Below, in pieces: positions 22,270 through 64,000 of a stretch of 64,000 nucleotides of DNA; the stretch's first letter is position 1, and every line of letters begins with the position of its first letter. The position numbers were made by a program, and so were the translations under genes. This DNA comes from Eledone cirrhosa. Its lineage: Eukaryota. A model generated the notes under the pieces. The model saw only the letters and a list, made by a program, of their open reading frames with translations, was not told the origin of the DNA and ran no database searches. Location of the stretch: contig OZ024740.1 in assembly GCA_964016885.1 (NCBI GenBank), positions 342,736,001 through 342,800,000 of the forward strand, given 5' to 3'.

Positions 22270-25200
22270 ATTGTCACCGAAATATCGAGACAGTGTTAGT
22301 CACAGAGGAGGAGATGGCAGTCGCAAGGGCCATGGTGACAAGAAGCGCAAATAGAGTTTCCCTGAAACCTCCACCCGATTTTTTCAAGGACCAGCAGCTA
22401 CGGACGGTGACTTACCGCACCGTAAGCAAAAGCTCACATCGAGTGGAGAGAGCCACGGAGGCTCAAATCCAAAAGGCCTTGGGGTGCGTCTGGGCACGCA
22501 AAACCCACATCACCCGAGGCAGAAAGTACGCCACAGTAGACATACTTTTCGCCACCCCCCAGGAAGCAAAGTCTCACTCTTTGGAAACCCTAAAGAATGA
22601 GGAGATAGTCTTGGTGCCCTCCTACTGCGGGCAGAAAATTGTGAGGGTAAAAGTGACCCAGGTCCCACCCGACGTGCCCATACCTTGGCTGGCCGCGTCT
22701 GTCCTTGCTGGAATCGAGAACAGGACGACCATGCTGCAAGTAGAAAAAAATAGGGAGAGAGAACTGGTCAGGTATAGGCATGCAAATGCTTATACAAACT
22801 GACCAGGAATGTATCGACGCTATCCCCGATATCATAGACATCGAGAAAGGACCCCAACTCCCTATAAGTGTAGAAGGAAGACGGCCAAAATGTTATCTCT
22901 GTGGGTCGAAGGGTCACCTCAGAGCCTTTTACCCGCAGAAGACAGCAAAGAAGGCCCCTCTCCTACCAATACCTGGTCCGTTGCTACCAAGAGCAGGGCA
23001 GGCAACAAACGAAGAAGCCCCTTCCACAGTGAGTAGGAGGGCAACGTCTGTAGCACCCGTACCAAGGCCACGGACAACTAAAGCAGCATCATCAGTGGCA
23101 GCAACACCAATAGTTACATTTGAAGTAGCTACACCAGCAACAAAATTGCCGAAGAGGGCTCCACTACCACCACCAACAGCCGTGGAGCATATACCCTTCC
23201 CAGAAGCCACAGAATCCGACATGGAGTTTGAGGTGGGAGTGAAGTGGCAAACGGTCAAAAAAGAAAAAAAACCTTAGATTCACCCTCCAAAAGCGAAGGC
23301 ATACAAAGAGGGGTAAAGGCAGCAAGGAAATTTGCAGCAACACCACCACCATCATCACCACAAGCACCACTGACAACAACAACCACACCACCACCAGCAT
23401 CACCAAAAACACCAACAATGCAAACACAACAAGACACATACACCAAACAGCAACAAGAAGAAAACAGCAACAAAATCACCCCTCCCCCCAAAAAGTACAC
23501 AGCCATAAACATGGCAAAAAAAGAACTCATACAATATATAAAGCAGCACACAGACATCACAGAAAAAAACTACTACACCCCACCAACACCAAGAACTCTC
23601 CCGACAAAAATAAGCATCATCGACATATCAATAGAACAGTACAAACCTTTAAAACAAAAATTCCCCAACGCAGTTGGAGACTTCAGAGGGTCGGTTACCA
23701 AGAGGATATACACTGACATCCTCTTGGAAACACCCATGACCAGCGAAAGGGACGGTTCTACTGTCCCTTCACCACATGAACAAGGTAAGTGACCCTTTCT
23801 TACTTGCCCCGTTTCTCATCCAACATGGCCGTACTCAGAATAGGCAGTATAAATGCACATGGCCTGGGGTCATCTTGGAAGCAGGGTCACCTGCTCAACG
23901 ACCTCAGGTCACTAAACATAGATGTGGTGGCCATCAGTGAAACCAGAATCTCCGAAGCGCAAGCTTCGCACCGATCTTCGGTGGCTACGATGTATACGCA
24001 TCTCCCAGCCGTCCAGGATCAGGGGAGGGGTCGCCGTCCTTTTTCGGAGAGGCTTGGATCTCGGGATACGGGCCATCTTCCTAGACCCAGAAGATAAGTC
24101 GGTGGTGCTGGACGTGACCGGCAGTGAAGGCAATGCTTTCAGGCTAGTAGCCGTCTACGCCCCAACAGGGGCAGGACGGCCAGATTTCTTCAGACGTCTA
24201 GAGACCTTTCTTGGAATGTCCCGCTCTTTAGTGTTAGTGGGCGACTGGAACGGTATATTGGATGCATGCTGGGACCGTGTGGGGCTGGTGGATAGGGGAG
24301 GAGGGTGCAAGAGCCTCACCAACCTGCTCAGGCATTTTGAATTGTCTGACAGGTATCGACTGGATCACCCGAATGTGCCAATGTGGACATGGACAAACCG
24401 CATCGAGTCGTCCAGATCGTATCTTGATAGGATATTCTGCAGGGAACTAGATAAGGCTAGTATAAGTTGTCCACAATTTAAAATAGTCGACTACACAGAC
24501 CACAAATTTGTGATCTGTGAGATCGACATAGACAGACTTCATAGACAAGGGCCTGGTTACTGGAAGCTGAACGCGTCTTTCCCGGCGCGCAAAGCCTACA
24601 GAGACCGGATTAGCATATTAGTTAAGCGGGCGTTGACGGGAGCGATCGTCAATAACAGGTGGTGGTTCGCCCTGAAAAGAGCAATTAAAGTAGAGTCGAT
24701 TAGGTTTAGCAAAGGAGTAGTGATAGAGGAAAATAGAGTAGAGGGAGAGCTAGTCAGAAAGCTAGAAGAGGCGTTTAGGACAGGCATCGCAACCGACGTG
24801 CTTGCGGCGAGATTGGCACTCGACCAAGTCTTCAACGCAAAACACGAAGGCTGCGTTGTCAGAGCTAGAGCGCGTGCTCTGAAACACGAGGGGACAAAAG
24901 CCATCCAATGGGCCCGGGTGGCAGAGGCGCAACGTGGCAACAAATCCACAATTCGGTCTTTGTCTGACCAAAACGGGTGCGTGATGCTCGAACCCGAGCG
25001 GATGTGTGAAGCTTTTCAGCAGCACTTTGCTGAACTGTTCGGGAACAGCGGCGGCCCGGATCGGGGCATGGACTTCAGTTCATACCTCGACGGACTGCAT
25101 CGGCTCTTGACGACCGCAGCACAGTGTTGCAAAAAGCCAATAACAGCCGGTCAAATACAGGAAGCGAGGGCTAACTGCACAAGGGGTAAATCGCCAGGTT

Positions 25201-27533
25201 TGGATGGTCTGCCCTACGAGCTTTATGTATTTATGCCAGACTTGTTCGGTGACCTCTTGGCAGATGTCTACTGCAACTGGCAGCAGAACGGGAGTATTCC
25301 CAGTTTTTTGAGCCGGGGAGCAGTGGCGCTGCTGAGAAAAGACCCGAACAAGGGGGATGTTATCGATAATTTCAGGCCCATAACCCTGCTAAACGCAGAG
25401 TTCAAGATTTTGGCCAAGGTGTTAGCAATGAGGTTGGCGCTTGTCGTCAAGGGGCTGGTGGGAGAGGCGCAGACATGCGTCATTCCGGACAGATCCATAC
25501 ACGACAACCTCCACCTCATGCGATACATCATAGAGAGGGTGGTTAAGGAACCTGGCAAGGGTGGGACCCTGATTAACTTGGATCAATCCAAAGCATTCGA
25601 TAGGGTCGACCATCGCTACCTGGCGGCGGTCCTCGAGGCAGCCGGTTTCGGCCCGTTTTCAGGGGTTGGATCGCAGCAATGTACAGCGACATCTGCTCAG
25701 TTGTGAGGGTGAACGGTCACCTGTCGCAGCCGTTCAGCATCATGTGCTCAGTCCACCAGGGTTGTCCCCTCTCGTCCCTCTTGTACGTATTGGCTCTCGA
25801 GCCGTTACTGCACAAACTGGGGGCAATGAGGGGCGTCCCACGCGAACTAGGATGCGGGAAATCCGAGTCGGCTTACGCTGACACGTCACCGTGGTGGTGT
25901 CGAGCACCAGACACGTCCAGATGCTCGGCACCGCTCTCAAGGAATACGAAGCGGTCACAGGAGCAAAGATAAACCAGGAAAAGTCGGTGGGCTTGCAGCT
26001 CGGCACCTGGAGAGGCAAGTCCATGCCATCTGACAGCGTCGTGGCGCGTTGGATGGACGGACCGGTTAGATTGCTCGGGGTCTGGTTCAGACTGGACCTC
26101 CAGATGGAGAAAAACTGGAACGAGGTGACGAGCAGGGTGGCCTCCCTCACCCAGAAATGGGCTGAGATGAAGCTGTCCCTGAAAGGCCGGGCGGAGGTGG
26201 CGAATGCGTACATTGCATCCGTCATCTGCTACCGCCTCACCGTCGTCTCTTGCTCCAGCCCAACTCTCACCAAAATGGAGCGCCTCCTCTTCCGCTTTTT
26301 GTGGAAGGGATGCGCTCCCATGGTCAGACGATCCATCTGCTGTCAACACCCGTTGCGTGGAGGACTGGGCATGCCATGGCTGATGATGCGCAAACATGCG
26401 CTGAGGCTGCGACATCTCTGATGCTGCCTTGATGGTGAACAGGTGTGGTCACCGTTCGCCAGACACGTTTTCCCACAGCTCGTCTCCTTGACGGAGCTGC
26501 AATCCTGGGTCAGAAAAAGACCGAGGGATAGTGCTTGGAAACTGGAATGTCTCCAGGCGCTCACTGCCCTCTGCCAGCTGGGCACCAGTATCGGTGGAAC
26601 ATCCACCTCGGCGTTCTATAGAGGACTAGTGGAGGGGAAGAGCGACGACATTCTCAGAGAGATCCTGGGCGTCGAAGAAGATCAGCTGTTTGCTCTCTTC
26701 TGGAGAACTTTCAGCCCGGGGCCTATGGATAACTTCCAAAAATCCCTGGCCTGGCAGTGCTACCGAGGAGCGCTGCCGGTTCGAGATAAGCTCTACAGGC
26801 ACGGAAGTGCCGTCAGCCGAGCCTGTCCGAGATGCGCGCAGAGCAACGAAACCATCGTGCACGCACTCGTTCAGTGCCCGAGCATTGCTGACCTGTGGAG
26901 CTATGTCGAACAGTTGCTGTCGCGTGTAGGACTGATCCGGTTGTCGACTGAGTCCATTGTGCAGATGGTCTCACAGTCTTCCTTCGAGGAGGAAGAGCAG
27001 GCAGTTTTCATCTGCCTGGTGGCCATGGTGAAAGAGATTGTGTGGTGGACAAGGTTAAAAGAGTTAAAGACAGACACTTTCCTCTTCGGCGAATCCCTAA
27101 TTAACTTTTTCAAGTTTCACTTGAAGAGGAAAATCAGGGTGGAGAGGCAAGTGCTGCCCTCTAGCAAGTTTGTGGAAAGGTGGGTGAATGTAGCGAGAAT
27201 GGTCCGAGTGAACGGGACCACTCTGAATATACGTCTGTAGTTTGAGAGAGGGCGCTTGCCCTGGTGGGCAGGGTGGCCGTGGTCTTTTGTGTGGTTTTCG
27301 CCACGAGTAACCCTCGGAGGTTTCCCCCCTATTGGGGAATTTTTCATTGTTTCAATTTTCATTTTTATTGTTTATATATATATATATGTTTCTATGTCCT
27401 TTTTTTTATTTCTTTTCTTATATAAATAATAAAAATATTTACACGCACAAAACCCACATCGTTCCGTCCTGTACCGTCCTGTGCCGTCTGTAATGTTTTT
27501 CTTGATGTCAGCCCTTGTGGCCAATAAAGAAAT
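22270..27533 (+). mobile_element. Tx1/L1-clade LINE, near full length (ORF1 about 22293-23792; ORF2 about 23825-27240), frameshifted
   Basis: ORF1 zinc knuckle CYLCGSKGH. ORF2: GSINAHGL, AVYAP, GDWN, SYLDRIF, TDH, GYWKLN, KSPGLDGLP, NFRPITLLN, LDQSKAFDRV, QGCPLS, AYAD, C-terminal CPRC...ETIVHALVQC. AATAAA at 27523 followed by (TAT)-like repeats. Confidence 0.92.
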
Positions 27534-31496: not shown

Positions 31497-31678
31497 CTAG
31501 GCAGTATCGGTAGAGGGTCAGACGCCATGCTTTCCAGCATAGTTACGTCCCTTTACAATCTGAGTTCAAATCCCGCCAAGGTTGACTTTGCCTTTCACCC
31601 TTACGGGGGCGATAAAATAAAGTACCAGTAATGCACTGGGTAATTACTGGCCTTGTGCCTAAAGTAGAAACAATTATA
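31497..31678 (+). mobile_element. OK-like SINE; an inverted copy lies at 32160-32310
   Basis: GGCAGTATCGGTAGAG...GAGTTCAAATCCCGCC...TTTGCCTTTCACCC...CCTTGTGCCTAAAGTAGAAAC. Confidence 0.75.
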
Positions 31679-33001
31679 TAGCTAAAAGGTTAAAAAAGGA
31701 AAAAATAGCTGAAAAATGTCACACACAGAAAAAGAAAAACTGAAGTCTTATGTGCCGCACAAAGATTGAAATGAAAATGGAGTGTGCTTTAGCTGAGCAG
31801 TGAAAACTCACATCTGACCATCAGCAGTCAACAGTTAGTCTGTGTTGCCCAGCTACCTGGGCCAGTTTTAAGACACAGTCCTTTTCTGTGGAGAACATTG
31901 TAGAGACCTCTCACATGATTCAACAGGCGTTTTTTTTTTTACTGATTAATTCCAAAATAATTATAGCTAACAGTTATTAAGATGTTGCTTTGCATACACA
32001 TATATAATTAACAAAGGAAATAGACAATAACGACATGCTAGCATGGATAATGATGATGATGATGGTGGTGGTGATGGTGGTGCAATAGGTGGTGGTACTG
32101 GTGGTTGTGGTGGTTGTGGTGGTGGTACTGGTGGTGATGATAAGAATAAGTCAGATAGAAAATAATTGTTTCTATTTTAGGCACAAGGCCAGCAATTACT
32201 CAGTACATTACTGGTACTTTATTTTATCGACCCCGTAAGGATGAAAGGCAAAGTTAACCTCGGCTGGATTTGAACTCAGATCGTAAAGGGACGTAACTAT
32301 GCTGGAAAGCAAGAAGGTCCATTATCAAAGCACAGGTATGGCTGTGTGGTTAAAAAGTTTACCTCACAACCTTGTAGTTTTGAGTTCAACCCCACTGCAT
32401 TTTAGTCAGGTGTCTTCAACAATAGCCTAAGATTAACCAATATCTTGTGAATGAAATTTGATAGACTGAATGCACTTGATATGTATATGTGTGAATGCAT
32501 TTTTATATGTATGAACGTGTGTGTGTCAGTATGTGTTCATGTCTGTGTTTATGATTTACACTACTTAACAATTGGTGATGCTTGCTTATATCTATGACCT
32601 GTAACTTAGCAGTTCAACAAATGGAGGTTGATAAAATATGTATCAAACTTAAAAACAAAAATAAAAAGTGCTAGACTTGATATGAAATCTTTGAAGGTGG
32701 TATTATGGCATGTTTGCTGTTCTATGAGTACCCATTCCTAAATCTATATTATATATGAAAAGTGGTCGTGTTGGCATCACGACAAAAAGCACCCAGCACA
32801 CACTGTAAATGTGGTTGGCATTAGGAAGGGCATCCAGCCATAGAAACCAAGCCAAAATCAGTTCCGTATGAGCAAATCATGATCCCCCGACCTGATCTTT
32901 CACAAAGGGACAGCCAGTCCTACTCATGCTAACGTGGAAGATGAACGTTAAATGATGATATGCACACTCACAAACACACACACACATATATACAATAAAT
33001 A

Positions 33002-38821: not shown

Positions 38822-41800
38822 AGAAATCTAGCTGTCGTCTGTTCTACAGTGTGGATGTCATTCACTTCGCACAGAAGTTTTGTTCAAATTTATTGAGGAA
38901 ATTTTGTGAGTTCAAACTTAATTTTGATACAATTGTGTAGCTTGACCCTCCGTCTGAACTGTCAGGCGGTGGGTCAGCTCATCTTTACCCCTCCTAGAGG
39001 TGAAAAACCTGTTTTAAAAAATTTTGTGTAAAAAATTTCAATCGTCTAACAGAAATGTTAAACGCAGCGAACGAAAATAGTGGTGGGGGGACAGTGGTAA
39101 GAGTTGTAAGCTCGCACGCTTTAGTCCCCTCTTCCTTCCCAACTAACGTCATAGAGAAGGAAGGAAAAATTAAAATAAAAACAGACGAATCTGCGGAGAA
39201 AAAAAAAAAATGACGAAAACACAAATCTGGACTTGGATTCCAACAACGAAAAAAAAAAATTTGGATAAAAAAAAACAAAAAAAAAAATTGCATGACAATA
39301 CTAATAACACAAACAAAGACACAACAAACACAAAAATAACATTTGAAAATAACACCATATCAGAAAACAAAGCAGACGACAAGATTTATTTTGCACAGAA
39401 AACAAAGATATTTTTGACTTATATAGCGGAAAACATTTCAGATGTGGTACGAAGGATCACGGACGCCAAACAATACATAAGTGAAGGAGAGAATGATATT
39501 TTATCGGTAAAAATGCCTCAAGAATTCACGAAAGACATTGAAAGCCGAACGGTCAAGTTTCAGACCATCAACAACAGTACAAAAAAACCTGAACAGCCTT
39601 CTCAAGCAGATATCAAAACAGTACTCACAGAAGTACTTAATGAAACCACTTTCATAAGAAAAGACAGAGTGTATGGAAGCCTAGCAATTATCATGAAGAA
39701 CGAATCGGCGGCAAAAAAATGTGCTTTGTCACCGATTCGTTCGAAAAATTTCACCTTTTATCCATCTTATATGGGGAAAAGAACTCAACGCATATGGCTG
39801 GATGCAATGATGCCAGATGTGGACTACTGCTGGCTCATAGCTGGCTTCATCGATCCAGTGAATGACAACGTGATTTCCATTGGGAAAACCACAGGCAATG
39901 CGTTCAGTGGAACAGGTATAGAGCTGGTAGTACAAATGAAGCCTGAACGCATCGCCCAAATACCCGACAGAATCCTATTAGAGGACCACGGGTATATAAA
40001 CATTAGCGTGGAGGGGAGAAGGCCGTCCTGCCATATCTGTGCAGGCAGAGGGCACCTGAAGGCCGCTTGTCCCCAACTCAACAAAAAGAAAACCCTGCTA
40101 CCAACACCAGCTCCACCACCACCACCACAACAGATAAACAAACAACAAAACTCAGTCCCACCCAATCCGTCCCTCAGTAAAACCACAACACCACCACAAC
40201 ACAAACAGTCACAACACATTACCCCAAAACAAAATACAGGCCCACCCAACCTCTCACTCAATAAAACAACACAACCACCGCAGACACAACACACAACACA
40301 GTCTAACATAGTGACATCCATCTCCCCAACACGGAAACATTACCAGCAAACATACCTCTTCCCTCCAACACTGAAGATAACCCAACGAATTCGGAGGAAG
40401 AAACGGAGTCCTTCAGACAGATTAAAAGGAAAAAAAGAAAACATGTGCAAAACACACAAGGACAAACAACCCCCACCCAAATCTCAACACAATCCAACAA
40501 AACAGAAAACACCCCTCCAGCAACAAACAAAACCAAACCTGCCCCTCCCCTCTTCGAAACACTCACACCATCGGAAAAAAAGACATTACACTATACTTAC
40601 ATCAACAGAAACAATAATAAATTAAATGAGCTCATATACAATAATCCTTCGGTACAAACCGAAGGTGTAAACTTTGTTTCGTCAGAAAACTACCCACATT
40701 TAAAACTAATAAAGATCCCAATGAACCTCTACCAAAAACTAAAAAAGGATTTTAAGGAGGACGTAGGACCACCCTCTGTCAAACCCATAAACCGCGTCCT
40801 ACTAAAAAGCTTTCCCCCTCCCCTTCCCCTCCCCAACACAACTCCAAACACCCCAACCCCACCACACACTGACGACCCCACACCACCACAAGACACCCCT
40901 TCACCCAACACCCCCGACCCCATGGAAGTCGTGCAACCCGAACCCCGGGAAGCGGAAAGGTAGGTCTCTACACTCTCCTTTGGCTCTGCCGCCCACATGG
41001 ATGTGTTAAGAGTAGGATGTTTGAATGCACGTGGCCTGGGCTCAACTTGGAAGCAAGCAAAGCTTCTAAATGACCTCAGGTCATGTAGTATAAATGTAAT
41101 GGTTATCTGTGAGACTCGAATCAGCGTCGTGCGGCAGCTGGCCCCCACCTTCGATGACTTTGAGGTGCATGCATCTCTCTGTCAACCTGGAGGTGGGGGT
41201 GGGGTTGTCGTACTGCTGCAAAAACACCTGGGTCTTGCCGTACAGGTTGTGCACTCGGACCCGGAGGGTCGTTTGTTGGTGCTAGACGTTGGCAGTAGTG
41301 AAAGTGCGGCCTTGAGACTGGTCGCCGTCTACTCCCCTTTCGGAGCTGAACGGCCCGACTTCTTCCAGCGTTTGGAGACTTTTCTGGGAACGTCGCGTTC
41401 CCTGCTTCTAGCGGGGGATTGGAATGACATCCTGGATGCACGTTGGGACTATGCAGGAGCATGTCCTAATAGAGGGGGGTGTAACAGCCTCAAGGGGTTA
41501 CTCGACCGTTTTAACTTGGTCGATAGATATCAACTAGATTTTCCAACTGCCTACCTGGACTTGGAGAAACCACAGTGGTCAATCTAGATCGTACTTAGAT
41601 AGATTCTTAGTTAGAAGTAAGGATAGGGACATATTAAGCTGTCCAGAAATGCGCACGGTTGGCTACACGGATCACAAATTAGTGACCTGCGTGGTCAATC
41701 TCGAGAAAACACATAGACAGGGTCCCGGTTACTGGAAACTTAATTTGTCTTTACCGGCAAAAGAGACTTACAGAAACCGGATTAGCAGATTAGTTAAGGA

Positions 41801-44645
41801 GAGGTTGACGGGTGCAATCGTCAACAACCGATGGTGGGCATCTCTCAAAAGAGAAATTAGAACAGAATCAATAAGTTATAGCAAGATGTTAGCTGCCGAT
41901 AGGAATAGAAACGAGAAAGAATTAACAGGTAAATTAGAAGAGGCAATCAAGAGCGAAGATGTGGCCAGAGTGCTGGCATCGAGGACGGCCTTGAACCAGT
42001 TTTCGATGCAAAGCACGAAGGCTGCGTCATTCGAAGTAAAATACGTGCTCTAGGTAATGAGGGGGCCAAAGCCGTTGGATGGGCCCGCGTGACAGAAGCT
42101 AAGAGTGGAAATCGATCCACCATCCGGTCGTTGCAAGACGAAGATGGACGGGTGATCCGGGAGCCTAAGCAGATGTGCGAGGCCTTTCAAAGGCACTTTG
42201 CCCGATTGTTCGGGGGAGGCGAGGGTCCGGGCGGGGGCGTAGATTTCGGTCCATACCTCGACGACCTGCCGCGTCTCTCGAACGAAGAGGCAGAGTCCTG
42301 CGAGGGACCAATCTCGGCTGATGAGATCGGAGATGCGCTGAGCCAATGCAGCAGACGCAAATCTCCAGGTCTCGATGGTATACCTTACGAACTTTATTTA
42401 GCAATGCCGGTCTTCTTCTCCGAACTCCTCGAAGCGGTCTACTGCAATTGGCAGCAGAACGGGAGAATTCCTTGTTCTGTAGCCAAGGGCGTAGTCACGC
42501 TGGTGAGGAAGGACGAGAACAAGGGGGATAGTATAAATAATTTTCGGCCCATAACCCTGCTAAACACAGAGTTAAAGATTTTGGCCAAGGTGTTAGCAAA
42601 GAGGTTGGCGCTTGTCGTGGGTGGCCTGGTGGGAGATGCGCAGACATGTGCTATCCCATCCAGGTCCATTCACGATAACCTCCACCTCATGCGATACATC
42701 ATAGAGAGGGTTGGCAACAAACCCGGCTTCGGTGGGGCCCTGATCAACTTGGATCAGTCTAAGGCCTTCGATAGGGTCGACCATGGTTACCTGGATGCGG
42801 TGCTAGTGGCGGCTGGGTTCGGTCCTGTTTTCAGAGGCTGGATCACTGCCCTACATAGCAACCACATCTGTTCTAGGATCAAGGTGAACGGCTACATTTC
42901 GAAGCCGTTCGAAATCACACGATCCATTCGACAGGGGTGCCCTCTCTCCTCCCTTCTGTACGTATTGACTCTCGAGCCTTTACTGAGGAAGTTGGAGTTG
43001 TTGCAGGGTATCCCCCTGGAACCAGGATTGAGCAAAGCGGTGTCGGTCTACGCCGATGACGTAACAGTAATGGTATCAACCGACTCGGAGATCGAGGCGA
43101 TCGGTACCTTACTGGAGGAGTACGAAAGGTTGTCAGGAGCGAAACTGAACCGGGAAAAATCCATCGGGCTGCAACTCGGAACGTGGAGAGGCAGACCGAT
43201 GCCTCCTGACGGTGTCGTCGGACACTGGACGGAGGGCCCGGTAAAGTTGCTTGGGGTCTGGTTTGGACCGGACCTCCAGGTGGAAAAGAACTGGAACGAG
43301 GTTACGAACAAGGTGTTTGCACTAACCCAGAAATGGGCCAAGTGTAAGCTGTCCCTAAAAGGCCGGGCGGAGGTGGCGAACATTTACATAGCGTCCGTCA
43401 CTTACTACCGCCTGACTGTCGTGCCTTGCCCTAAGGAAACACTCACCACCATGGAACGCATGCTCTTCCAATTTCTTTGGAAGAAGCGTCCTCCTATGGT
43501 GAGAAGATCCATCTGCTGCCAACAACCTTCGAAAGGAGGGCTGGGGATGCCGTGGTTGATGATGCGTAGGCACGCATTAAGGCTACGGCACCTACAGGTA
43601 TTCCTCACTGGTCAACCGGTGTAGGCTCCGTTCGTGAAACGAGCCTTTCCGAGACTCGTCTCGCTCACCGAGCTACAGTCCTGGGTCAAGCAAAGATCCG
43701 GAAAACTGGGAGACTGGCACACTGAGTGTGCTCAGGCGCTCAGGGCTCTCTGGCAAGCGGGCCAGGCCATCGGTGGAGAATCCACCTCATCATTCTATAG
43801 AGGGCTGGTGGCTAGCAGGGGCGATGACACCCTTGGAGAGTCGCTGGACATGGAAGAAGACGAACTGGCCAGCCTGTTCGGTAGGACTTTCGGCCCAGGA
43901 CCAATGGACAACTTCCAGAAGTCACTGGCCTGGCAGTGCTACCGGGGGGCTCTACCCGTTCGAGAGAGGCTCTACAGACACGGGCGCCCGGGCAGGGATC
44001 CCTCAAAAAAGATTTGCCCTAGATGCGTGCGTCACGAAGAAACCGTTGCGCACGCATTGGTGCAATGTCCGGGCGTGGCTGATCTGTGGGGCTACGCCGA
44101 ACGACTGCTGTCGCGGGTGGCGCCGATTAAATTGACCGCCGAGTCCGTGATGACAATCAAACCGCCTCCCCTCTTCACAAAGGAAGCAAAGGCGGTTTTT
44201 CTGTGCGTAATAGCCATGTTGAAAGGGGTTGTTTGGTGGACACGATTGAAAGGTCTGAGGTCAGGCAACTTCCTCTCTGGCCATAGTCTGGTCTACTTCT
44301 TCCGATATCACTTCGGAAGAAGGATAAGAATGGAGAGAGAGGTGCTTGGCCACAGGCAGTTTTATGAAAGGTGGGTGATAGTGGCGAGAATGGCTCGTGT
44401 AAATGGGCCTTCTCTGTATACCATCCTGTAGGTAAAGAAGTAAAGGAGAGGGGAGCACCTTCTCCATGTGCTCTCCGGGCAAAGGATTGCACACTTTTTC
44501 GGGGGTGTGTGCAACCCCCATCACGTCCCCTCCCTTTTGAGGTTATTTTCGATTATTTTCATGTTACACCCTTTTTACTCGATTATATGTAAACTCCCCC
44601 TTTGTATTTGTCCCTTCTTTTTATGCCTTTATGGTAAATAAAGAA

Positions 44646-44647
<2 letters not shown>
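38822..44647 (+). mobile_element. Tx1/L1-clade LINE, full length (ORF1 39210-40963; ORF2 40997-44431), several disablements
   Basis: ORF1 contains CHICAGRGHLKAAC and a Pro/Thr-rich tail. ORF2: GCLNARGL, GDWN, TDH, GYWKLN, QGCPLS, YADD, CPRC...HALVQC. Ends AATAAAGAAAT(CTAT)n. The 5' boundary is approximate. Confidence 0.92.
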
Positions 44648-44678
<31 letters not shown>

Positions 44679-46888
44679 GCAGAACGGGAGAATTCCTAGT
44701 TCTGCAGGCAAGGGCGTAGTAATGCTGACCAGGAAAGACGAGAACAAGGGGGACGAAATTAACAACTTCAGGCCCATAACTCTGCTCAACACAGAGTTAA
44801 AGATTTTGGCCAAGGTGCTAGCGACGAGGTTGGCGCTTGTCGAGAACATGGTAGGGAAAGCGCAAACGTGTGCAATCCCGACCAGGTCCATACACAACAA
44901 CCCCCACCTCATGCGATACATCATAGAGAGGGTGGGTAGTAAACCCGGCTTCGGTGGGGCTCTGATCAACTTGGATCAGTCTAAAGCATTCGATAGAGTC
45001 AACCATCGATATTTGGAAGCGGTTCTCAAGGCGGCCGGTTTCGGTCCTGTGTTCAGAGGCTGGATCGAGGCGATGCACACCAGCATATGCTCGAGGGTCA
45101 AGGTGAACGGCTACCTAGCGGAGCCGTTCGCAATCACGTGTTCCATTCGACAGTAGTGCCCTCTCTCTTCCATTCTGTATGTATTGACTCTAGAGCCACT
45201 ACTGCGGAAATTGGAGCTGTTGCAGGGCATCCCTCTAGAACCGGGACTGCGCAAAGCGGCGTCGGCTTATGCCGACGACGTGACGGTAATGGTGTCGAGC
45301 ACCTCAGAAATCGGGGTGATCGGCAACTTACTGAAAGAATACGAAACGCTGACGGGAGCAAAACTAAACCCGGAACAAGTCTGTCGATTTGCAACTCGGT
45401 ACGTGGAGAGGCAAACCGATGACGTCCGACAGCGTCGTTGGACGCTGGACGGACGGACCGGTAAAATTGCTCGGGGTCTGGTTCGGTCCAGACTTCCAGG
45501 TGGAGAAAAACTGGAACGAGGTCACGGCCAAGGTGTTTGCACTCACCCGGTAGTGGGCAGAGTGCAAACTGTCCTTGAGAGGTCGAGCGGAGGTGGCGAA
45601 CACTTTCATAGCGTCCGTCATCTACTACCGCTTGACTGTCGTGCCTTGTCCCCGTGAACACCTCGCCAAGATGGAACGCATGCTCTTCCAGTTTCTGTGG
45701 AAGAAGCAGGCTCCGCTGGTGAGGAGATCCGTCTGCTGTCAGCACCCTTCCACGGAGGGCTGGGAATGCCGTGGCTGATGATGCGCAAACATGCGCTGAG
45801 GCTACGGCATCTCCAGGTATTCCTCACCGACCCCCAACCGGTGTGGGCACCATTTGTGAGACAGGCTTTCCCACAGCTCGTCTCGCTGATGGAGCTGCAG
45901 TCCTGGGTCAAGAAAAGACCGAAAACGATGGGCGCCTGGCACATTGAATGCGCTCAGGCGCTCACAGTCCTCTGGCAAGCGGGCGCAGCAATCAGTGGAG
46001 ACTCCACTTCGACATTCTATAGAGGGATTGTACGTTACAAGGGCGACAACTTGCTCGGAGATACTCTAGGCGTCGAAGACGATGAGCTCACCAGTCTATT
46101 TGGTAGGACTTTCTGCCCGGGACCTATGGACAACTTCCAGAGGTCCCTGGCCTGGCAATGCTACCGAGGAGCTCTACCGGTTCGTGACAAGATCTACAGG
46201 CACGGACGCCCCGGCAGGGATCCTTCCAAGAGGACGTGTCCAAGATGCGCGCAGGACATTGAAACAGTCCTGCACGCAATTGTACACTGCCCGGGCCTAA
46301 CTGACCTGTGGAACTATGCAGAACAACTGCTGTCGCGTATGGGACAAATCCAGTTGACTGCCGAGTCCATAGTAAGGATCAAACCGCCAGCCTCTTTCAA
46401 AAACGAAAGAGAGCGGTGGCTATGGTGAAAGAAGTTATATGGTGGACGAGGTTGAGAGGACTGAGGACAGATGCCTTTCTCTCCGGACAACAATTGATTC
46501 CCTTCTTTAAGTATCACTTTAGAAGGAGAATCAGGGTGGAGAGAGAGGCACTGCACTCCAGTAAATTTACTGAAAGGTGGGTGAATGAAGCAAAAATGGC
46601 CCGAGTGATTGGGCCTTCTCTGTTTATAAGCCTGTAGGTTGAGGAAGAGAGCAAAAGGAAGAAAGGAGCACTTGCACAACATGCTCCTGGAGTTGAGGGT
46701 TGTTCTATCGACGGGGTATTAAACAACCCATTTGTGTCGCCTCCCCCCCTATTGGGGGTTTCGATTGTTGTAATTGTTTGTTTTTATATTTTTTACACGA
46801 CTGTATGTAAAATCCCCGGCATGTCTTTGTGTATTGTCCACTTTTCTTGTGCGCCCTTGTGGCTAATAAAGAAATAAATCTATCTATC
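44679..46888 (+). mobile_element. 5'-truncated Tx1 LINE (third copy), head-to-tail with the previous one
   Basis: Starts abruptly in RT (QNGRIP); NFRPITLLN, AYADD, CPRC..ETVLHAIVHC; ends AATAAAGAAATAAATCTATCTATC. Confidence 0.9.
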
Positions 46889-49483: not shown

Positions 49484-50335
49484 TTACATTTTAAATTTAT
49501 ATTTAAACGTTGAGTTCAATCTATGTCTGCAGCAACTGAATAAATTGTTCCTTAGGTTCAGGGAATTTTTGGTCTTTAATATAAAGAATATTTCCTCTAT
49601 ACAAAGATCGCAATTTTCAGAAGAGGAGTTAAAAGGAGTAGCTTTTGAAATAATATTCCAAAGCAACGAATATTTAACGTTCTTTAATTTAAGGTCCCAT
49701 AATAAGCTAGATAGAGAAGTTGAAGATTTTTTGTTTGGATTTGTAAAATAATTTTTATGATTATTGAAACGAGATTTAAACTCTGTGGAAGTGGATCCCA
49801 CATAATTAAATGAATTTAAATTAGTTTTTACATTACAATTATAAACTATATTTTTAGCTAAGCAATTGTTATTTAACGGACAGTTAGATTTATTTCTACA
49901 GTTACATTTATCAAATTGGATATTGCTTGGGTTATTAGTGGTATTCTGGTTAGGTTTTAAATTTCTATTATTAATTCTATTAATATTTTGCGCTAAATTT
50001 TTGGTGGAAGAATAACTTAATTTTATAGTATGTCTATTAAAAATTGAGTAATATCTATGTGTTCTAAGGAAGCATTTGTCAAGAGCTTTAAAAAATAGTT
50101 TAGCAATAGGAGTTTTAATATTTAATGAGAAAGGAGGAGCGAACCATAATATATTCCTAGTTCTATTTCTTTTTTTGTTTTCCGAATTATTGTAAGGTTT
50201 TCTATTATAATTGTTAAAATTGTTAAAATAGTTAAAATTGTTAAGATTATGGTTAGTTTTTATATTATTATTATCAATGTATTTAATTTTATTTCTATAC
50301 CCAGCTCTACCTAACGCTTCGTTGTAATAATGTGG
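49484..50335 (-). mobile_element. Penelope-like element, C-terminal ~280 codons (RT thumb linker plus GIY-YIG endonuclease), no stops in my manual translation
   Basis: YYNEALGRAGY...RNIIWFAPPFS...IKLSYS...CNCRNKSNCPLNNNCLAKNIVY...YVGSTSTEFKSRFNNHK...TSLSSLLWDLK...CDLCIEE...LNLRNNLFSCCRHR. Confidence 0.88.
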
Positions 50336-50656
50336 AGGGGGGGGGGGGTTGTCGAAAGATAAATCAGAATAGACTTAGAAATAAAAATAGAATTAAAAAT
50401 AAAATTAAAATTAAAATTAAAGTTAATAATAATAAAAAAATAAAGATAATAATAGAATAACGTAAGTGGCGTAAAGTGTGTAATCTTATGTATATTAACA
50501 AGGTGTAATAGTGAAGACATAGATATGGTACAGTAGCCAAATGATTATGAGAGCTAGAATGAAGAGTCATCAAAAACCAATGGTGATAATGATGATAACA
50601 TTAATGTTGGCAAACAAAAGAACCCAAACAAAAAACTAAGTAATGGAATATATCTG

Positions 50657-50869: not shown

Positions 50870-52671
50870 CCTTTAATATCTTTGCCTTTCATCCTTACGG
50901 GGTTGATAAAATAAAGTACCAGTAATACACTGAGTAATTGCTAGCCTTGTGCCTAACGTAGAAATATCTTTAACAATTGTAACATTTATATAACTAAATA
51001 ACGTAATTTCCTTCACGCTGATTTGATATTACATAGAAATGATTTTCTCTATTTTTTCTAAGATTTTCTATGAAAAATCTATAAGTTTATGAATATTCAT
51101 ATATCTTAAATTAAAAAAATCCTTTATACTTTGTATGTATATATTATGTACGCAGATGTATATGTATATGTATGTGTTTGTATGTATATATATATTTATA
51201 TGTATATATATCTGTGTGTGCGTGTGTATATATATGAATATATTCTTTTAGTAATATATAGATTTCTTAATAATAATATATAGATTTCTTAATATATAGA
51301 TCTCAATTTTTAATGTATAGATCTCAATAATTTAAATGATAAACTAAACATTTAATCATATTTAAACAATGGTTAAAATTCTCATATTATGTATGTATTT
51401 TCCATTCAAGCTTATTTACATTTCTATATTCATCCATAAAAAATAAATATTTCTTCTTTCACTTCATCTCAAATGTTAAGATAACTCAACAACCTATCAC
51501 TTAGAGTTTTTGCTTTCTCTTCTCTCTTTTTTTCTTTTTTCTCTCTCTCTCTTTCTCCGTAACCCAACGGGTTATTTAAAAATATCCAATACAAATTTAC
51601 ATAATAGTATTAATAAAGTTATAACCCCACTATCCGGGAGCTTCCAACAGTAATGGTTTCATTCTTTAAGGGTATGTCAATATTTATTTATAAAACTGCT
51701 CTATATTATATTTTATCTGATGAAAGCACACCATAATTTAACTTGATGTCCTTGAAATAAATATGGTTTTATAAATATAGTTTCCATTTGTTAATATCGT
51801 ATATATATATATAAAAATAACAGATTAAAGTTTAAGCAAAGAATCACTGCTTTCACCCTTAACGGGATCTTCTGAAACTAACAAAGTCAATATATATATA
51901 TATATACACACACATTTGTACATATATTAGTTTGGGCTAAAAACATTTTTGTTTTTTTATGTCTAACTTTAAAAGCAAAATTTTCTGTGTGTTGCTTTTT
52001 GGTAAGTAATTACAAGTTTTATATTTGTTCTCTGTCAATTGTCACTGTATAATTGTATCTAATCATATAAATGTATGAATTATATATAAACGTATTATAC
52101 CAGCTTATTGTAGACTGGCATATAAAACGTGTGGGGATTAGCAGAACCACTAGAGAGTTTGACGAAATGCATACGGTATTTAGTTTAACTTTGCTTTCGT
52201 CCTTTTAGGGTCGGTAAAATACCAGTCAAGTACTGGAGTCGATAAAATATTCAGATGTAAATGAGCGTTGTCCCAGTCAACTCAGTTACCAAAAATGTGT
52301 TTCACTTGTAATTTAAAAGGTCAATCTTGCCACATACTGTATTACGGTAAATCTCCCTGAAAATTACGTTAAGGTTACATGCTTCTATTAAATCCTCGGC
52401 CACATGCACGCTAATTTCATAAGCAGCTGGAACACTCGTCGTCGGAACCGACGGAGGTCTGACAATGAATCAATAAATACACTTCTAAGCTGACTAGTGC
52501 AGTTAAAAATTTAAATTAAAAATAAGAGTTCTCTCCCTTTATACACCGCGTTTAACTTCGGTATTCGTAACTTCAATATGAGAATAGCGTTTTCAAAGTG
52601 AGCACATCTCACTTGAACAAAACATAAACTGATTTAAACTTACTTATTGTCTAAACAGTGCTTTTTTTGTA

Positions 52672-53064
52672 ATGCCTAGACGGGCAGCATCAAGTGGTCG
52701 TGGGACAAAGAAGACACCAGTGTCCAACGCCGTTCGCGGTCGGCTCATAGATTGTTATGATCGTGGATCGGACTATAAGGAACTTGCTCAATCCATAGGC
52801 ATTAATTTGAAGACTGCAAATAGAATAGTTTTGGATTATATAAAAACAGGAAAACGAAATGCATTACCCAAGGGTGGTAGATGCAATGTAAAAATTGATG
52901 ATGAGATGCGTAACTATTTGTTTGCAGCAATAACTAACAATCCGTCTATCAGCTTGCGAAAGTTAAATGAGAGCATGAAATTGGATTTGCCACAAAAACC
53001 ACTTGTAAGCAATAGTTGTATTTCAAAGACACTAGATAGCATGCTGATAACAAGAAAAAGGCTG
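52672..53064 (+). CDS. Tc1/IS630-superfamily transposase N-terminal DNA-binding region (double HTH), 131 codons, no DDE domain
   Basis: ATG-initiated and stop-free: VSNAVRGRLIDCYDRGSDYKELAQSIGINLKTANRIVLDYIKTG..LPKGGR..KIDDEMRNYL...NNPSISLRKLNESM...VSNSCISKTLDSMLITRKRL. Similarity ends at G|GTAATA; the rest of the 206-aa ORF is pyrimidine-rich and intron-like. Confidence 0.75.
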
Positions 53065-53197
53065 GTAATAGTTGTTTACTCATTCCGTCTCTCACTATTT
53101 TTGTCATTCTTTATCTCTTACTATATCAATATTTTCTTGTTAGTATCAGCATCATTATCTCCCTTATCACTTCTAGCATTGTGTCTATCAGTTGAAA

Positions 53198-53303
53198 ATG
53201 GAATCAGAAATCGAGAGAATGTGTCCTTCTGGCGAACACCCGGCTGTGGCCAACTTCAGACGATATCTAAGAATCAAAACTGTCCAGCCTAATCCTGATT
53301 ATG
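53198..53303 (+). CDS. ACY1: Aminoacylase-1 (M20A family), first coding exon
   Basis: [35 protein letters not shown] + G|GTCAGT, matching the ACY1 N-terminus (human [24 protein letters not shown]). In-frame TAG at 53174-53176 upstream; phase-1 donor. Confidence 0.9.
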
Positions 53304-58485: not shown

Positions 58486-58550
58486 ATGGAGCAATAGCAT
58501 TCCTGAAAGAAATGGCTGCAGAACTTGGTTTGCCATACAAAGTAATTGAG
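58486..58550 (+). CDS. ACY1: Aminoacylase-1, second coding exon (65 nt)
   Basis: TTTTCAG|AT GGA GCA...GAG|GTGAGC. Joins exon 1 in phase to give PDY-DGAIAFLKEMAAELGLPYKVIE (human [25 protein letters not shown]). Later exons were not found in the window. Confidence 0.9.
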
Positions 58551-59424
58551 GTGAGCTATGTAGTTTCTACTTACAGAGGTGTAGTAAACTGGATTAGTCA
58601 CTTTTGGGCACAGCTTTGAAGGGGGGCTAAATTTCCAGTGGCTTATCATGCTTGTTAATTTAAACGGATTGCGCCAAATGTATTTTTGCCCCTGGGTACT
58701 AAGAACCCTTGTTATGTCACTGTCTTTTTATTAACCTTTTCATGGGGGTAGATTTGTAATATCGGTAAAACATCAGACAAATGCTTTGTAGTATTTGTTC
58801 TGGCTATGTACGCTCTGAGTTCAAATCCTGCTGCAGTTAACTTTGTCTTTCATCATTTCAAGGTCAATAAAATAAAGTACCAGTAAAGTATTGGCATTGA
58901 TATAATTGACTTTTCCTTCTCTAAAATAGAAATCATTTATGAACACTTTCATTAACATATTTCTAATGAAATAAACAGTATCATCTTTCTGCCTTTCTTT
59001 TCATGTCATATTATGTCTGATGATAGGCAAATATGTGATGAATAGTTATGACATCTGTGTATATATGTATATTATTATCGTTCATCAACTTATTTTTTCA
59101 TACACAGAACCTTGTTAGCAAAGTATTGTAGCAAATACTTTCCCAGGGACCACCATGTTGGCTTGATCCCCAACTGTATTGTTGTTAATTAATTAAACAT
59201 TTGGATAAATTTACTAAAATTATTTCATTATTAAGATGGCATTTGTAACAAAAAGTTCTTATATAAAATTATGCTGGAAGATCTCTTTAAAACGTGTGGT
59301 TTTGTTTCACAGAACCAGAGGAGGATTGATATTAGAGGGATTAAATTGAACTTTGATAACTATTTCTGTTCACTAAATTCCTGTTTACTTGACGTTCTCT
59401 CTGGCTTTTCTCATCTTTTCTCTG

Positions 59425-60024
59425 TACAGAAAGATAATTGTTTCTGATTTAGGCACAAAGACAACAATTTGGGGTTAAGGGAAAGTCGATTAAATCAATC
59501 CCAGTGCATTGCTGCTACTTTTTTTTTATCGACCCCGGAAAGAAGAAAGGCAAAGTTAATCTCAGTGAGATTTGAAATCAGAATGCAAAGGGTCATAACT
59601 CTATGCTATGAAGCATAGTGTCTGACGCTCTACCGATATTGACAATACAGAAAGATAATTGTTTCTACATTTGGCACAAGGCCAGCAATTACCCAGTGTA
59701 TTACTGGTACTTTATTTTATCGACCCCGTAAGGATGAAAGGCAAAGTTAACCTCGGCGGGATTTGAACTCAGAATGGCAAGGGCCGTAACTCTATGCGTC
59801 AAAGCATGGCGTCCGGCCCTCTACTGATACTGCCAAAAGATAATTGTTTCTACTTTAGGCACAAGGCCAGCAATTACTCAGTACATTACTGGTACTTTAT
59901 TTTATCGACCCCGTAAGGATGAAAGGCAAAGTTAACCTCGGCCGGATTTGAACTCAGATCGTAAAGGGACGTAACTATGCTGGAAAGCATGTCCGATTCT
60001 CTACTGATACTGCCAAAAGATAAT
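59425..60024 (-). mobile_element. Three tandem OK-like SINEs
   Basis: Three ~180-210-bp SINE copies, each bounded by AAAGATAAT. Further diverged copies at about 58760-58930(+) and 60255-60395(-). Confidence 0.85.
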
Positions 60025-61127
60025 GAAGTGCAAAATAACTGAAGAGATTGGAATGACTCATCAAAATTCTATGATGTTTCCATGTCAATATAGATTTATG
60101 TATGGACCTGTAACTCTTAAGGGAGCATCATATTGACATATGGCATTTCTAGGGCATTTTTAAACCTGGTGGAGCCCAACTACTCTCCAAGTCTGAATAC
60201 AGTAGATTTCTTCCAGAAAAGGATAGAAAGTGTGAGAAAGTGATATAGAAGAAGAATCGACCCCAGTACTAGACTAGTACTTTTGTTATCGACTTTAAAT
60301 GTATGAAAGGCAAAGTTAACTTCTGCAAGATTTGAACTCAGAAAGCAGAGAGTTTGAACGAATACTGCAAGGCATTCTATCCAACGTTCTAACGACTGTT
60401 TTTATGTTCTTTGGCATTTTTCACTATATAGTAAAAAAGGGTTCAAATACTCAGTAACTAAACTTCAATCTTATCCTAAAATATTTTAACTGAACCTACT
60501 CTCATAGCTTTTGCTATCACATATTTGAGTTAAAAGTTAAATAAGTAAGTATTTAGATGATAGCAATTCTGAGAATTACTAAACATATACTTTTATCTAT
60601 TATCTAAGTAAAATACATTCTCAAAAAGCTGCATTTTTATCAAGTAGTAAATCTATTTCTTGGCAGATTTTACAAATGTTTAACAAACATATTTTAACAT
60701 TCCAACAATATTTGGCTGACAAAATTTAAAACAAATGTTTATACATCAAATTGATAGGGAGTTGATAGATGCAGGCATGTCTGTCTGGTTCAGAAGTTTG
60801 TTTTGTAACTGTGTTTTGGGTTTTATCCCACCGTATGGTGGCTTGGGCAATTGTCTTTTACTATATACCCTCAGACTGATCAATGCCATGTGAGTAAAAT
60901 TTGGTAGAGAGAAATTCTGCAGAAGCTTGTCTTATATACATATATATATATATATATATATACGGGGTAACAGATTATTGTTATAGGTAGTCTACTTAGG
61001 TGTAGTCCAGTTAGGGTACTCTGAGTAGTGTATGATATCAACGCTTGGCTAAGTTTGACTCAACAAGGCGTTTCCATAGTGATGCTGTGAGTACGCGGTG
61101 ATTTCTATGTTAACACTTGGAGTAATG

Positions 61128-61467
61128 ATAAATCAGGAAAGAAGAGTGACACAGTTTACTATACAAAAAAGGTTTTTAATCTCATTGCTGACAATTGTTT
61201 CTCTGAACTAGTAGGTCTAGAGATCGCTACCCACTTGTTTTCACGTCATTCGATCACCAATACATAGTTGTAACCAGTCAATTCATCAGAGCATTCTCGC
61301 AAGCTCTGATGAATTGACTGGTTACAACTATGTATTGGTGATCGAATGAAGTGAAAACAAGCGGGTAGCGATCTCTAGACCTACCAGTTCAGAGAAACAA
61401 TTGTCAGCAATGAGATTAAAAACCTTTTTTGTATAGCAAACCGTGTCACTCTTCTTTCCTGATTTAT
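61128..61467. repeat. 340-bp near-perfect palindrome (165-bp arms, 10-nt loop, 5 mismatches)
   Basis: 61128-61292 is the reverse complement of 61303-61467. Confidence 0.97.
61303..61408 (+). ncRNA. Minimal type I hammerhead ribozyme with enlarged stem II; mirror copy on minus at 61187-61292
   Basis: GCT-CTGATGA-[ATTGACTGGT...ACCAGTTCAGA]-GAAAC-AATT-GTC-AGC: both core boxes, palindromic stem III (ACAATTGT), GUC cleavage triplet, stem I GCT/AGC. Confidence 0.75.
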
Positions 61468-61829
61468 ATATATTAGAAAAACAAAGAAGTTTCGTTTACA
61501 TGTATAAGATTTTTATTGTGTATCGACTTGCTACGTGCGTTTTGCAGAGGATTGGCTCAGGGTCACCCATAGGAGTTATTGACCCGACTCCTACTCTGCC
61601 TGTGCATAGAGTGCTTGTTTTGATACTGCCACCAGTAATTCACTGATTCACCTACACTGTATATATATATATAAATACACTATAAATGTGGTTGGTGTTA
61701 GGAAGGGCATTCAGCTGTAGAAACCAAGCTAGAAATTATTATATAGCATTATCAGTTAATGTCTGTTATCAATTAACCACTTGACCTTGGTTTTGTTTCT
61801 TATCTTTTCGTTGTATGACATTATCATCA

Positions 61830-62167
61830 TCATCATCATCATCATTTCCGTCTGCTTTTCCTTGCTTGCAAGGGTGGGATGGGAACAGATTCTGGCTTGA
61901 TTTCTACAGCTGGATGGCTTTCCTAACACCAACCTCGTTTACAGTGAGTGCTGGGTGCCTTTTTGCCGTGGCACCTCCACGACCACTTTGCAGTGGAATG
62001 ATAGGGACCCCAGTCCCTATCATCTCATTTCTACAGCTGAGGAAACTGGAGCAATGTGAAATAAAGTGTCTTACTCAAGGAAACAACACATCACCCGGTC
62101 TGAGAGTTGAACTCACAGCCTTTTGATTGCAAGGCCAATGCTCTAACCACTAAGCCATGTGCCTCCA
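61830..62167 (-). mobile_element. tRNA-derived SINE with RTE tail and (ATG)n end
   Basis: Reverse complement of 21252-21590. Confidence 0.8.
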
Positions 62168-62517
62168 TAATGTATATATATATATATACATTATGTATAT
62201 ATATATATATATATACTGTCTGCCATGAGGGTATAAAAAACTTTTAAAAATCTCATCTGGTTCATCTTTGTGATCTAAGATCTAACACTAAGATCCCATC
62301 AAACATTCCATCATGTTGTTCCACTCAAAATCCTATCATCTGCACTAAATGCAGCTTGATATGTAAATCAGCAGCTGGATTAAAGTGCCATTTAAGGCAT
62401 AACCATGCATTGAACCTTCATAGTTCAATATATGAGGGGAGAGTCCATTATATATATATATATATATTTATTAAAATAACAGATTAAAGTTTATATATAT
62501 ATAAAGTTTATATATAT

Positions 62518-62596
<79 letters not shown>

Positions 62597-62621
62597 TACA
62601 TATATATATGTATATATATAT

Positions 62622-64000
62622 ATCATCATCATATTTTATGTCCGTTTTTCCCTGCTTCAAGGGTGAGACGAGTCCTCTTCAGCACAGCATCTCTCCATTC
62701 GTGTTGGTATCTTCTGTGAGCCTCAGCGATCTGAGTTCAGCTCTCACCACCTCCGCCCATCTTTTTCGTGGTCTTCCTCTACTGTGTCTTCTTTCCACCG
62801 GGATTTCTTGGCACTTATTCACCCAGCGGTCATCTTACATGCACATCACATGGCCATGTCAATGCAGTCGTCTCTCCCACACACTACAGCTTATTCCTCT
62901 TATACACAGTTTCACTCTCAACTCATCTATGCTTGGTTATTCACGCACATTGACATTACACATCCATCTGAGCATGCTTGCTTCATTTCTCTCCAGCCAT
63001 CGCACATCCTCTGCAGTTGCTGCCCATGTCTCACTACCATGCAGCATCGCACATCTCACACAGGCATCGTATAACCGACCTTTCATTCTTAGGGAGAAAC
63101 CCTTCGTTGACAACAGAGGAAGCAGCTCCCTAAACTTCTTCCATCCTGTCCTTATTCTAGATACTATGGCCTCGGAGCATCTCCCCTTGCTAATCTGATC
63201 ATCTAGATATCAGAAGCTATCAACTACCTCTATAGATCCTACCTGCATTTGAAAAATGTGCCTATCACTGACACTTCTACTATCAATTTTCCCTGAGCAT
63301 TTACTACATATGAAGTTTTCCCTTCCTGTTAGTTTGCCTGATATCCCATTACACCTCTTGTGTACTCAAGATCTACATTGTGTACATTCTATAGAGTTTA
63401 TGCCAACTCCTTTTCTACATATCGAACATGGCTATTTCCCCGATGGAATCAGAGTTTTGTCCTCTTTCCTACTTATCAACACTTTAGTCTTTGCTAGTTT
63501 TACTCTTAGTCCTCTTGGTTTCAATTGCTGTTTCCATAACTGGAATTTATTCTTTAGCTCCTCTACTCATTTTGCTATAAGTACCAGATCATCAGCATAG
63601 AGAAGTTCCCATGGGCAGCCAGTCTTAAACTTCTCTGTTATGGCTTGGAGAACTATAATGAATAAGAGTGGGCTGAGGACCAAACCCTGATGAACTCCTA
63701 CTTGTATCTGGAATTCCTCACTGAACTCCATTCCTACTCTCACTTTACTGACAGCTCCTCTGTACATAGCTTGCACTGTCTTCACAAGCCATTCCTCTAT
63801 ATCTAGTTTCCTTAGGGACCATCAGATGACAGATTGGGGTACTCTATCAAAGGCCTTCTCTAGATCAACAAAAGCTAAGTATAGTGGCCTATTCTTCTCT
63901 AAGAACCTCTCTTGTAGTTGTTTCACAAAGAAGCGGGCATCTATTGTACTTTTCCCAGGCATAAAACCAATCTCATCTAATTTAACTCTTTCTCTAATTA
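62622..64000 (-). mobile_element. RTE LINE 3' portion (continues beyond window)
   Basis: GVHQGLVLSPLLFIIVLQAITEKFKTGCPWELLYADDLVLIA; colinear with 46890-48220. Confidence 0.9.

Follow-up and report, generated by a model that had tools for sequence, protein, structure and literature searches.

The palindrome at 61128..61467 of the window (that is, of the whole 64-kb stretch of DNA that was analysed) consists of two copies of a high-copy repeat joined head to head, and it was most likely created, as we judge with good confidence, by a single insertion event of a PLE pLTR; in any transcript, its hammerhead motif is predicted to be trapped and inactive. The original prediction had proposed an inverted pair of pLTRs at this site, and this is supported, with a PLE-type family as the source, by the high copy number of the arm, by the head-to-head orientation of its copies and by an extension that is present on one side only. 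The palindrome most probably represents an ordinary scar left by a jumping gene, and the locus itself carries little weight as one of many PLE-type scars; the interest that remains resides in an oversized stem II and in a junction located at the 5' edge of the ribozyme.

Anatomy of the palindrome

The two arms of the inverted repeat, each 165 nucleotides in length and 97% complementary to one another, are separated by a spacer of 10 nucleotides. The left arm (61128..61292, minus strand) is the paired part of a longer pLTR-like copy, and the right arm (61303..61467, plus strand) is a shorter, inverted copy that starts exactly at stem I of the hammerhead and ends at a TA run; as in EN+ PLE insertions, an inverted, 5'-truncated copy is joined head to head with its partner. 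When folded as RNA, the palindrome reaches -277.5 kcal/mol (z -33.5), a stability equalled by none of 100 shuffled sequences, which bears out the claim that a strong fold-back is present at this position. The arms differ at five places, given here on the plus strand as 61153A/61442C, 61158A/61437C, 61210A/61385C, 61233A/61362C and 61245G/61350A. Four of these five had been described as A-C mismatches in the plus-strand transcript, and the list of sites confirms that count (the fifth being G-A); the same four sites are G-U wobbles on the minus strand, and the excess of A-C over G-U among the transitions (four of four) is not significant (two-sided p 0.125). Beyond the palindrome pair, neither a second copy of the arm nor a direct repeat of it was found in the 64-kb window, and the head-to-tail arrangement of retrozymes is absent at the locus.

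Repeat family and origin of the mismatches

Four public DNA runs carrying one organism label (at most three samples, from two studies) were compared with positions 60700-61900 at 80% likeness. Summed contig depth is about 6,000-155,000 over the arms, as opposed to 12-15 on the unique flank, values that indicate high copy number rather than providing a copy count, and RAD reads lie hundreds deep over the arms; the arm is a member of a high-copy repeat family. In the right arm, coverage of the 3' half is approximately ten times deeper than that of the 5' half, which could be explained by 5' truncation and equally by subfamily differences.

At all five mismatches, the majority letter of the family is kept by one arm and has been changed in the other. 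Four private G>A changes on the plus strand belong to the left arm (61153, 61158, 61210 and 61233, where G is found in 354/360, 354/382, 278/297 and 195/252 X9 reads, respectively), two of them at CpG, and one private change, a C>A at 61350, belongs to the right arm (C in 830/861 X9 reads); this variant evidence is drawn from the 40 rows listed out of 254. Since the family majority letter is retained opposite each change, the mismatches are DNA changes that arose during or after insertion, and they are not footprints of ADAR, because such footprints would need A>G. A fossil of editing, in which edited RNA was copied into DNA, is likewise ruled out at the four A-C sites, because G is the letter of the family there and the substitutions run G>A / C>T. 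The mismatches have the appearance of decay at the DNA level, and not of a switch operated by RNA editing. Both arms additionally share letters that are in the minority among the RAD reads (61152/61443 and 61270/61325), and these fit one source.

All four transitions lie in the left arm and run in one direction (G>A on the plus strand, C>T on the sense strand of the element), a pattern with a chance of about 1 in 64 by a post hoc hand calculation, and one that counts against the best explanation.

The five differences between the arms, with one arm matching the family each time, also argue against a fold-back introduced by the assembly, as do a spacer that matches the family sequence on one strand and an asymmetry of the arms that equals the size of a PLE tail. 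Speaking for such an artefact, no independent read or contig was seen across the loop (none of the contig pieces listed for the four runs spans it), the best runs contain 57-64% of the sampled words of 60600-61800, and the private letters of the left arm at 61158 and 61210 are found in none of the depth of the X1 contigs; those contigs, however, drop rare variants and may come from another individual. An assembly artefact is, on this evidence, improbable.

The hammerhead motif

Each arm harbors CTGATGA, followed by 81 nucleotides and then by GAAACAATTGTC, with cores that start at +61306 and -61289. Motif positions and folding delimit a type I hammerhead motif at 61303..61408 on the plus strand, comprising a 3-bp stem I (61303-05/61406-08), CUGAUGA as the core of the right copy (61306-12), a stem II region of 81 nucleotides (61313-93) and GAAAC-AAUU-GUC (61394-405), with a predicted cut after 61405. 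The mirror motif of the left copy (61186..61293, minus strand) has a 4-bp stem I, and one G-C pair of its stem II is now G-U. CUGANGA, GAAA and NUH are present in type I order, and a scrambled-order hammerhead was ruled out by eye, the ordinary order being the one that closes stems I and III. Helix I measures 4 bp in the left copy and 3 bp in the right, the norm for minimal type I PLE hammerheads being 4-5 bp, and helix III with loop 3 is palindromic (ACAAUUGU; self-duplex -6.4 kcal/mol). Two features depart from that class: (i) stem II begins at its base with A.A (or, behind a bulged A, with U-A) in place of G10.1-C11.1; and (ii) a region of 81 nucleotides stands in place of a helix II of 7-8 bp. 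No Rfam hammerhead matched at the gathering score across the 64 kb, and none was found among the 22 matches, with E values of up to 10, in 60900-61700; the Rfam miRNA matches were dismissed as generic hairpin matches that lie far below their own gathering scores.

The original prediction had described the stem II region as unusually long (~80 nt), as the 81 nucleotides found in each arm confirm. It had also described each arm as a complete minimal hammerhead, and this holds for a core that is present in type I order but not for the A.A pair, the 81-nucleotide insert and the missing Rfam match. The motif resembles a canonical minimal hammerhead and cannot be filed as one.

These departures raise the possibility of a dead or merely apparent hammerhead, belonging to a family that never cleaves and in which the 81-nucleotide insert and the A.A pair block folding of the core. 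A single arm favours non-hammerhead folds by 6.9 and 10.2 kcal/mol (placing the hammerhead 7-10 kcal/mol above the best single-arm fold), and the stability of the stem II insert lies at shuffle level (z -0.55 and 0.12); together with the lack of an Rfam match and of G10.1-C11.1, these results speak for inactivity. Arguing in the opposite direction, the core, stem I and the palindromic stem III are intact and in the right order, and only three core-plus-palindrome arrangements exist on both strands of the 64 kb, two of which are the arms of the palindrome. Furthermore, none of the nine listed family-variable sites falls in the core or in the two predicted stem II helices (p about 0.005, from 40 of 254 rows, in a test that is weakened by RAD reads that end inside the hammerhead core). 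For the two helices alone (61318-22/61383-87 and 61340-44/61369-73 on the plus strand, with pair probabilities of 0.88-1.0 in the right arm), the same count of none in nine gives p about 0.07 in a biased sample of 40 of 254 rows, and support for possible selection on the stem II insert is thin. On balance, a hammerhead that is dead throughout its family appears rather unlikely.

Of the 117 loci obtained when metagenomes were scanned with the pattern, none resembled the element beyond the pattern itself (best blastn match 18-22 nt), and these were discarded as chance matches, with a stem I of 3-4 bp in 5/116. Elsewhere in the window, a further candidate core was observed at 1360-1430 on the minus strand, where a CUGANGA-like heptamer lies 62 nt upstream of GAAAC-TGTACA-GTC.

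Predicted locking of the ribozyme, RNA editing and the host gene

With the hammerhead forced to form, the palindrome reaches -114.4 kcal/mol, versus -277.5 kcal/mol for its free fold, so that freeing the motif would cost about 163 kcal/mol; in addition, CUGAUGA is paired at 7/7 positions in all seven plus-strand transcript prefixes that were folded. The hammerhead is predicted to be locked in a 165-bp duplex on either strand of any transcript, in agreement with the earlier suggestion that the ribozyme is silenced by pairing.

An ACY1-like gene lies on the plus strand upstream of the palindrome, as had been claimed: its first coding exon (53192..53303) is matched by TIGR01880 (E 4e-7) and by PDB 1q7l (E 2.4e-7) and has splice borders. 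The probable next exon (58486..58550, plus strand) is in frame with the first and is flanked by AG/GT borders; it was assigned by that frame and by a presumed likeness to ACY1, and the segment alone has no profile match. For later exons, no short motif was matched in 58551-64000, and 0/82 plus-strand frames matched NCBIfam in a weak scan that also missed a control exon. The palindrome likely lies within an ACY1 intron.

This position, downstream of two ACY1-like exons and on their strand, is compatible with a ribozyme switch in the ACY1 pre-mRNA, kept silent by pairing and adjusted by A-to-I editing so as to affect the gene; so is the preference of ADAR, coleoids included, for duplexes such as this one, which is 165 bp long and contains A-C mismatches (PMC8891338). 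Conversion of the four A-C sites to I-C, modelled as G, nonetheless shifts the duplex from -277.5 to -302.4 kcal/mol, real I-C pairs being somewhat weaker than G-C according to PMC8891338; the same is reported for Alu fold-backs, whose A-C mismatches stem partly from the decay of CpG and whose stability is often increased by editing (PMC526178). When ~50% of the non-core adenosines were forced to be unpaired, 8-10/10 core bases were still paired in 8/8 trials, and the probability that all seven core adenosines escape editing at a rate of ~50% is 0.008. The claim that editing modulates the ribozyme is not supported by these results, as editing at the A-C sites is predicted to tighten the duplex and the sites themselves go back to DNA changes that are private to the left arm. 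Single minimal PLE hammerheads, moreover, gave no cleavage (PMC4209133), and cleavage by a PLE hammerhead needed the protein of the element (PMC11167929). A switch of this kind is therefore very improbable.

An ACY1 pre-mRNA that reads through the palindrome would present the antisense arm first, and this arm would trap the strand of the ribozyme during its synthesis. As a generic substrate of ADAR, the duplex would be stabilised by editing at the A-C sites, and hyper-editing would strike the catalytic adenosines before releasing them. The duplex may well be edited if it is transcribed, and on these models editing is not plausible as the key that opens it. Common short repeats in both orientations were also observed at 58760-60376 and 61678-61946, inside the presumed ACY1 intron; since these other inverted repeats would form dsRNA, the palindrome would not be the sole ADAR target there.

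Ends, junction and proposed mode of insertion

The left copy continues for ~28 nt past 61128, to about 61100 (a one-sided tail at 61100..61127, minus strand, as defined by read ends), and the right copy has no tail. Loose, mixed and AT-rich read ends are found before 61108 (394 in X9 and 356 in X10), with last letters that still resemble 61101-61107, and most family copies therefore end near 61100. The extension resembles the one-sided tail of PLE insertions, with a length of ~28 nt by loose ends as compared with the 30-40 bp given in PMC8557442 and PMC3846280, but repeat sequence goes on to 60964: the high-copy stretch beyond the tail (60964..61099, minus strand) is hairpin-rich, reaches a (TA)n run and is linked to the tail in a few contigs only. 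It is possibly the body of the element, and the continuation of the left copy into it in some contigs is unexplained by a clean 28-nt tail. No clear target-site duplication was found, the best candidate being 4 nt at the tail end and the remainder TA repeats only; depth, the mixed AT-rich loose ends and the TA run after 61467 show that the targets are AT-rich and the copies dispersed.

RAD molecules that start at -61301 number 61 and 72, those that start at -61294 number 120 and 109, and most of the listed end points fall at AATT, a distribution that appears to fit digestion by SphI and MluCI. On that assumption, by which the junction letters are read from RAD read starts, GCATGC would stand in family copies at 61299-61304, the place of GCAAGC in the window, and the spacer (61293..61302, minus strand), which family reads match to 61301, would therefore belong for the most part to a 5' extension of the left copy. 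The junction would rest on a microhomology of four nucleotides (ATGC/GCAT) in which 61302 was changed later. An opposite-strand joint at 61302/61367 was also observed in an X1 contig of single-copy depth, and it could represent another head-to-head copy, one arm of which starts at the same stem I boundary.

PLE protein has been demonstrated to nick and extend both target strands, with two RT start sites, internal to the RNA, that bound a tail of 30-40 bp, and its insertion template is mostly uncut RNA, the hammerhead cleaving only with protein (PMC11167929). For the palindrome, we infer a PLE origin by double priming and a lack of function. The enzyme of a PLE that may belong to the Hydra clade would nick both strands of an AT-rich target; two cDNAs would be primed on uncut element RNA at start sites ~28 nt apart, yielding 3' ends at 61467 and ~61100; both would pass through the ribozyme, stop at its 5' edge and anneal by the 4-nt microhomology; and the arms would later diverge through ordinary DNA mutation. 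Both copies span the cut site, and the template RNA would therefore have been uncut or re-joined. No PLE ORF is attached to the arm at the locus, which makes its connection to PLEs an indirect one.

The main alternative to double priming is that one cDNA ended at a GCAT-N6-ATGC hairpin upstream of the ribozyme, snapped back and self-primed its second strand. The family sequence, as reconstructed, forms this DNA hairpin weakly (-1.5 kcal/mol), palindromic junctions have been read as self-priming in PMC3846280, and the minority letters shared by the arms are in keeping with such an origin. Snap-back alone, however, gives no two 3' ends 28 nt apart, as two RT start sites do (PMC11167929), and the GCAT/ATGC letters are equally usable as microhomology between two cDNAs; self-priming is accordingly doubtful, and double priming is preferred.

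The driver of such an insertion may have been a Hydra-clade PLE, to judge from a shared 13-mer, TTTCCTGATTTAT, that lies at the 3' end of the arm (61455..61467, plus strand) and, in a comparison by eye, also at the 5' end of the Hydra-1_Obim consensus. It lies 62 nt past the cut site here, versus ~69 nt in Hydra-1_Obim if the ends of the latter are joined; its chance, estimated post hoc, is about 3e-4 to 2e-3, and an unrelated consensus, from Chlamys, also contains it once. Outside the 13-mer, the arm has no obvious likeness to Hydra-1_Obim by eye, and the locus offers no protein by which to place it in the clade. At some distance, an AT-rich ORF at 49484-50374 (minus strand) looks, on inspection by eye, like the PLE proteins of the Hydra clade, its linker being rich in Asn and its end similar to GIY-YIG; it has no Pfam or NCBIfam match.

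Relationship to known systems

The twin-hammerhead layout is already in print, and what is found here is a known architecture with a variant hammerhead. Pairs of inverted pLTRs that carry a hammerhead on either strand have been published (PMC4209133, PMC8557442, PMC3846280), the first of these papers placing hammerhead pairs on opposite strands 100-700 bp apart, and inverted, 5'-truncated copies with one-sided tails are standard in PLEs according to the latter two; Penelope-13_HM, for example, has an inverted copy with one hammerhead per strand (PMC8557442, Files S1/S2). The palindrome shares with EN+ PLE insertions (Pen2a_Av in PMC3846280, Penelope-13_HM, and the Fig. 2 legend of PMC8557442) its head-to-head copies, the palindromic nature of their junction, a one-sided tail, an AT-rich target and a hammerhead on each strand. 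It differs from them in that no ORF lies between or beside the arms, the tail is ~28 nt, a clear target-site duplication is missing (a feature that is optional in PLEs) and both copies stop at the 5' edge of the ribozyme.

The core, short helix I, palindromic helix III and opposite-strand pairing within 100-700 bp correspond to the minimal type I PLE hammerheads of PMC4209133, whereas the 81-nt stem II region (against a 7-8-bp helix) and the A.A pair (against G10.1-C11.1) do not. In the hammerheads of the Hydra clade (PMC8557442, File S2), the pair that closes stem II at its base is often not of the Watson-Crick type, stem III is near-palindromic and 3-4 bp long, and the targets are (TA)n, all of which recalls the palindrome; loop II, in contrast, does not exceed 10 nt in these hammerheads or 35 nt anywhere in that File. 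Five nucleotide strings from the arm gave no match in the available supplement of PMC8557442, whose line breaks could hide some, and no published account of an 81-nt stem II region was found by title or by the start of the abstract, in a search of papers available without subscription.

Similar to the palindrome arms, non-LTR retrozymes (PMC7229834; bioRxiv 10.64898/2026.07.22.740005) are short, high-copy, apparently non-coding carriers of a type I hammerhead, with a proposed derivation from PLEs; those, however, are head-to-tail tandem repeats, whereas the palindrome is head to head. Inverted Alu pairs (PMC526178) likewise form a repeat-born fold-back in which A-C mismatches stem partly from CpG decay and I-C is often stabilising, but the arms of the palindrome come from one insertion, lie 10 nt apart and carry a ribozyme motif.

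Broader implications

A more far-reaching proposal, which we consider unlikely, is that the family represents a high-copy, non-coding PLE parasite with an active hammerhead and a structured stem II of 81 nt, whose insertions repeatedly join at one hairpin 5' of the ribozyme. If so, one centre like GAGCATTCTCGCATGCTC would be common to many palindromes of this genome and would represent a set position at which PLE reverse transcription stops and the copies are joined; were the junction at the 5' edge of the ribozyme to recur, the completion of PLE insertion could be tested directly; and each insertion would silence its own ribozyme while supplying long dsRNA to ADAR and RNAi. A stem II domain of 81 nt would exceed any in the published PLE tables that were compared. 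Neither Rfam nor the published descriptors pick up a hammerhead with a stem II of this size, and PLE ribozymes may consequently be undercounted.

Other elements in the window

A second high-copy repeat (61468-61645, minus strand) adjoins the right arm tail to tail across the TA run. With family letters restored, its sequence is GCAGAG ... CTCTGC-GAAAC-GCGC-GTA, corresponding to the 3' half of a core that resembles a hammerhead and has a long stem II; no CUGANGA was seen upstream of this half-core, and many contigs contain opposite-strand joints at 61593. Another inverted pair, of 150 nt and 93% alike, is located at 31528-31677 / 32162-32311, its members ~480 nt apart. Just upstream of the first ACY1 exon, an ORF at 52633-53292 (plus strand) displays weak helix-turn-helix matches (Pfam HTH_29, E 0.0036, below the cut-off) and is probably a transposase remnant. 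ORFs at 7826-12295 (plus strand) presumably correspond to a Helitron, given their likeness to Rep/PIF1 helicase. Finally, a Gypsy-like gag/pol set, several L1/Tx1-like LINE copies and a further RT fragment were recognised by eye at 16672-20297, 22254-27240 and 39174-46428 on the plus strand and at 5320-7390 on the minus strand.
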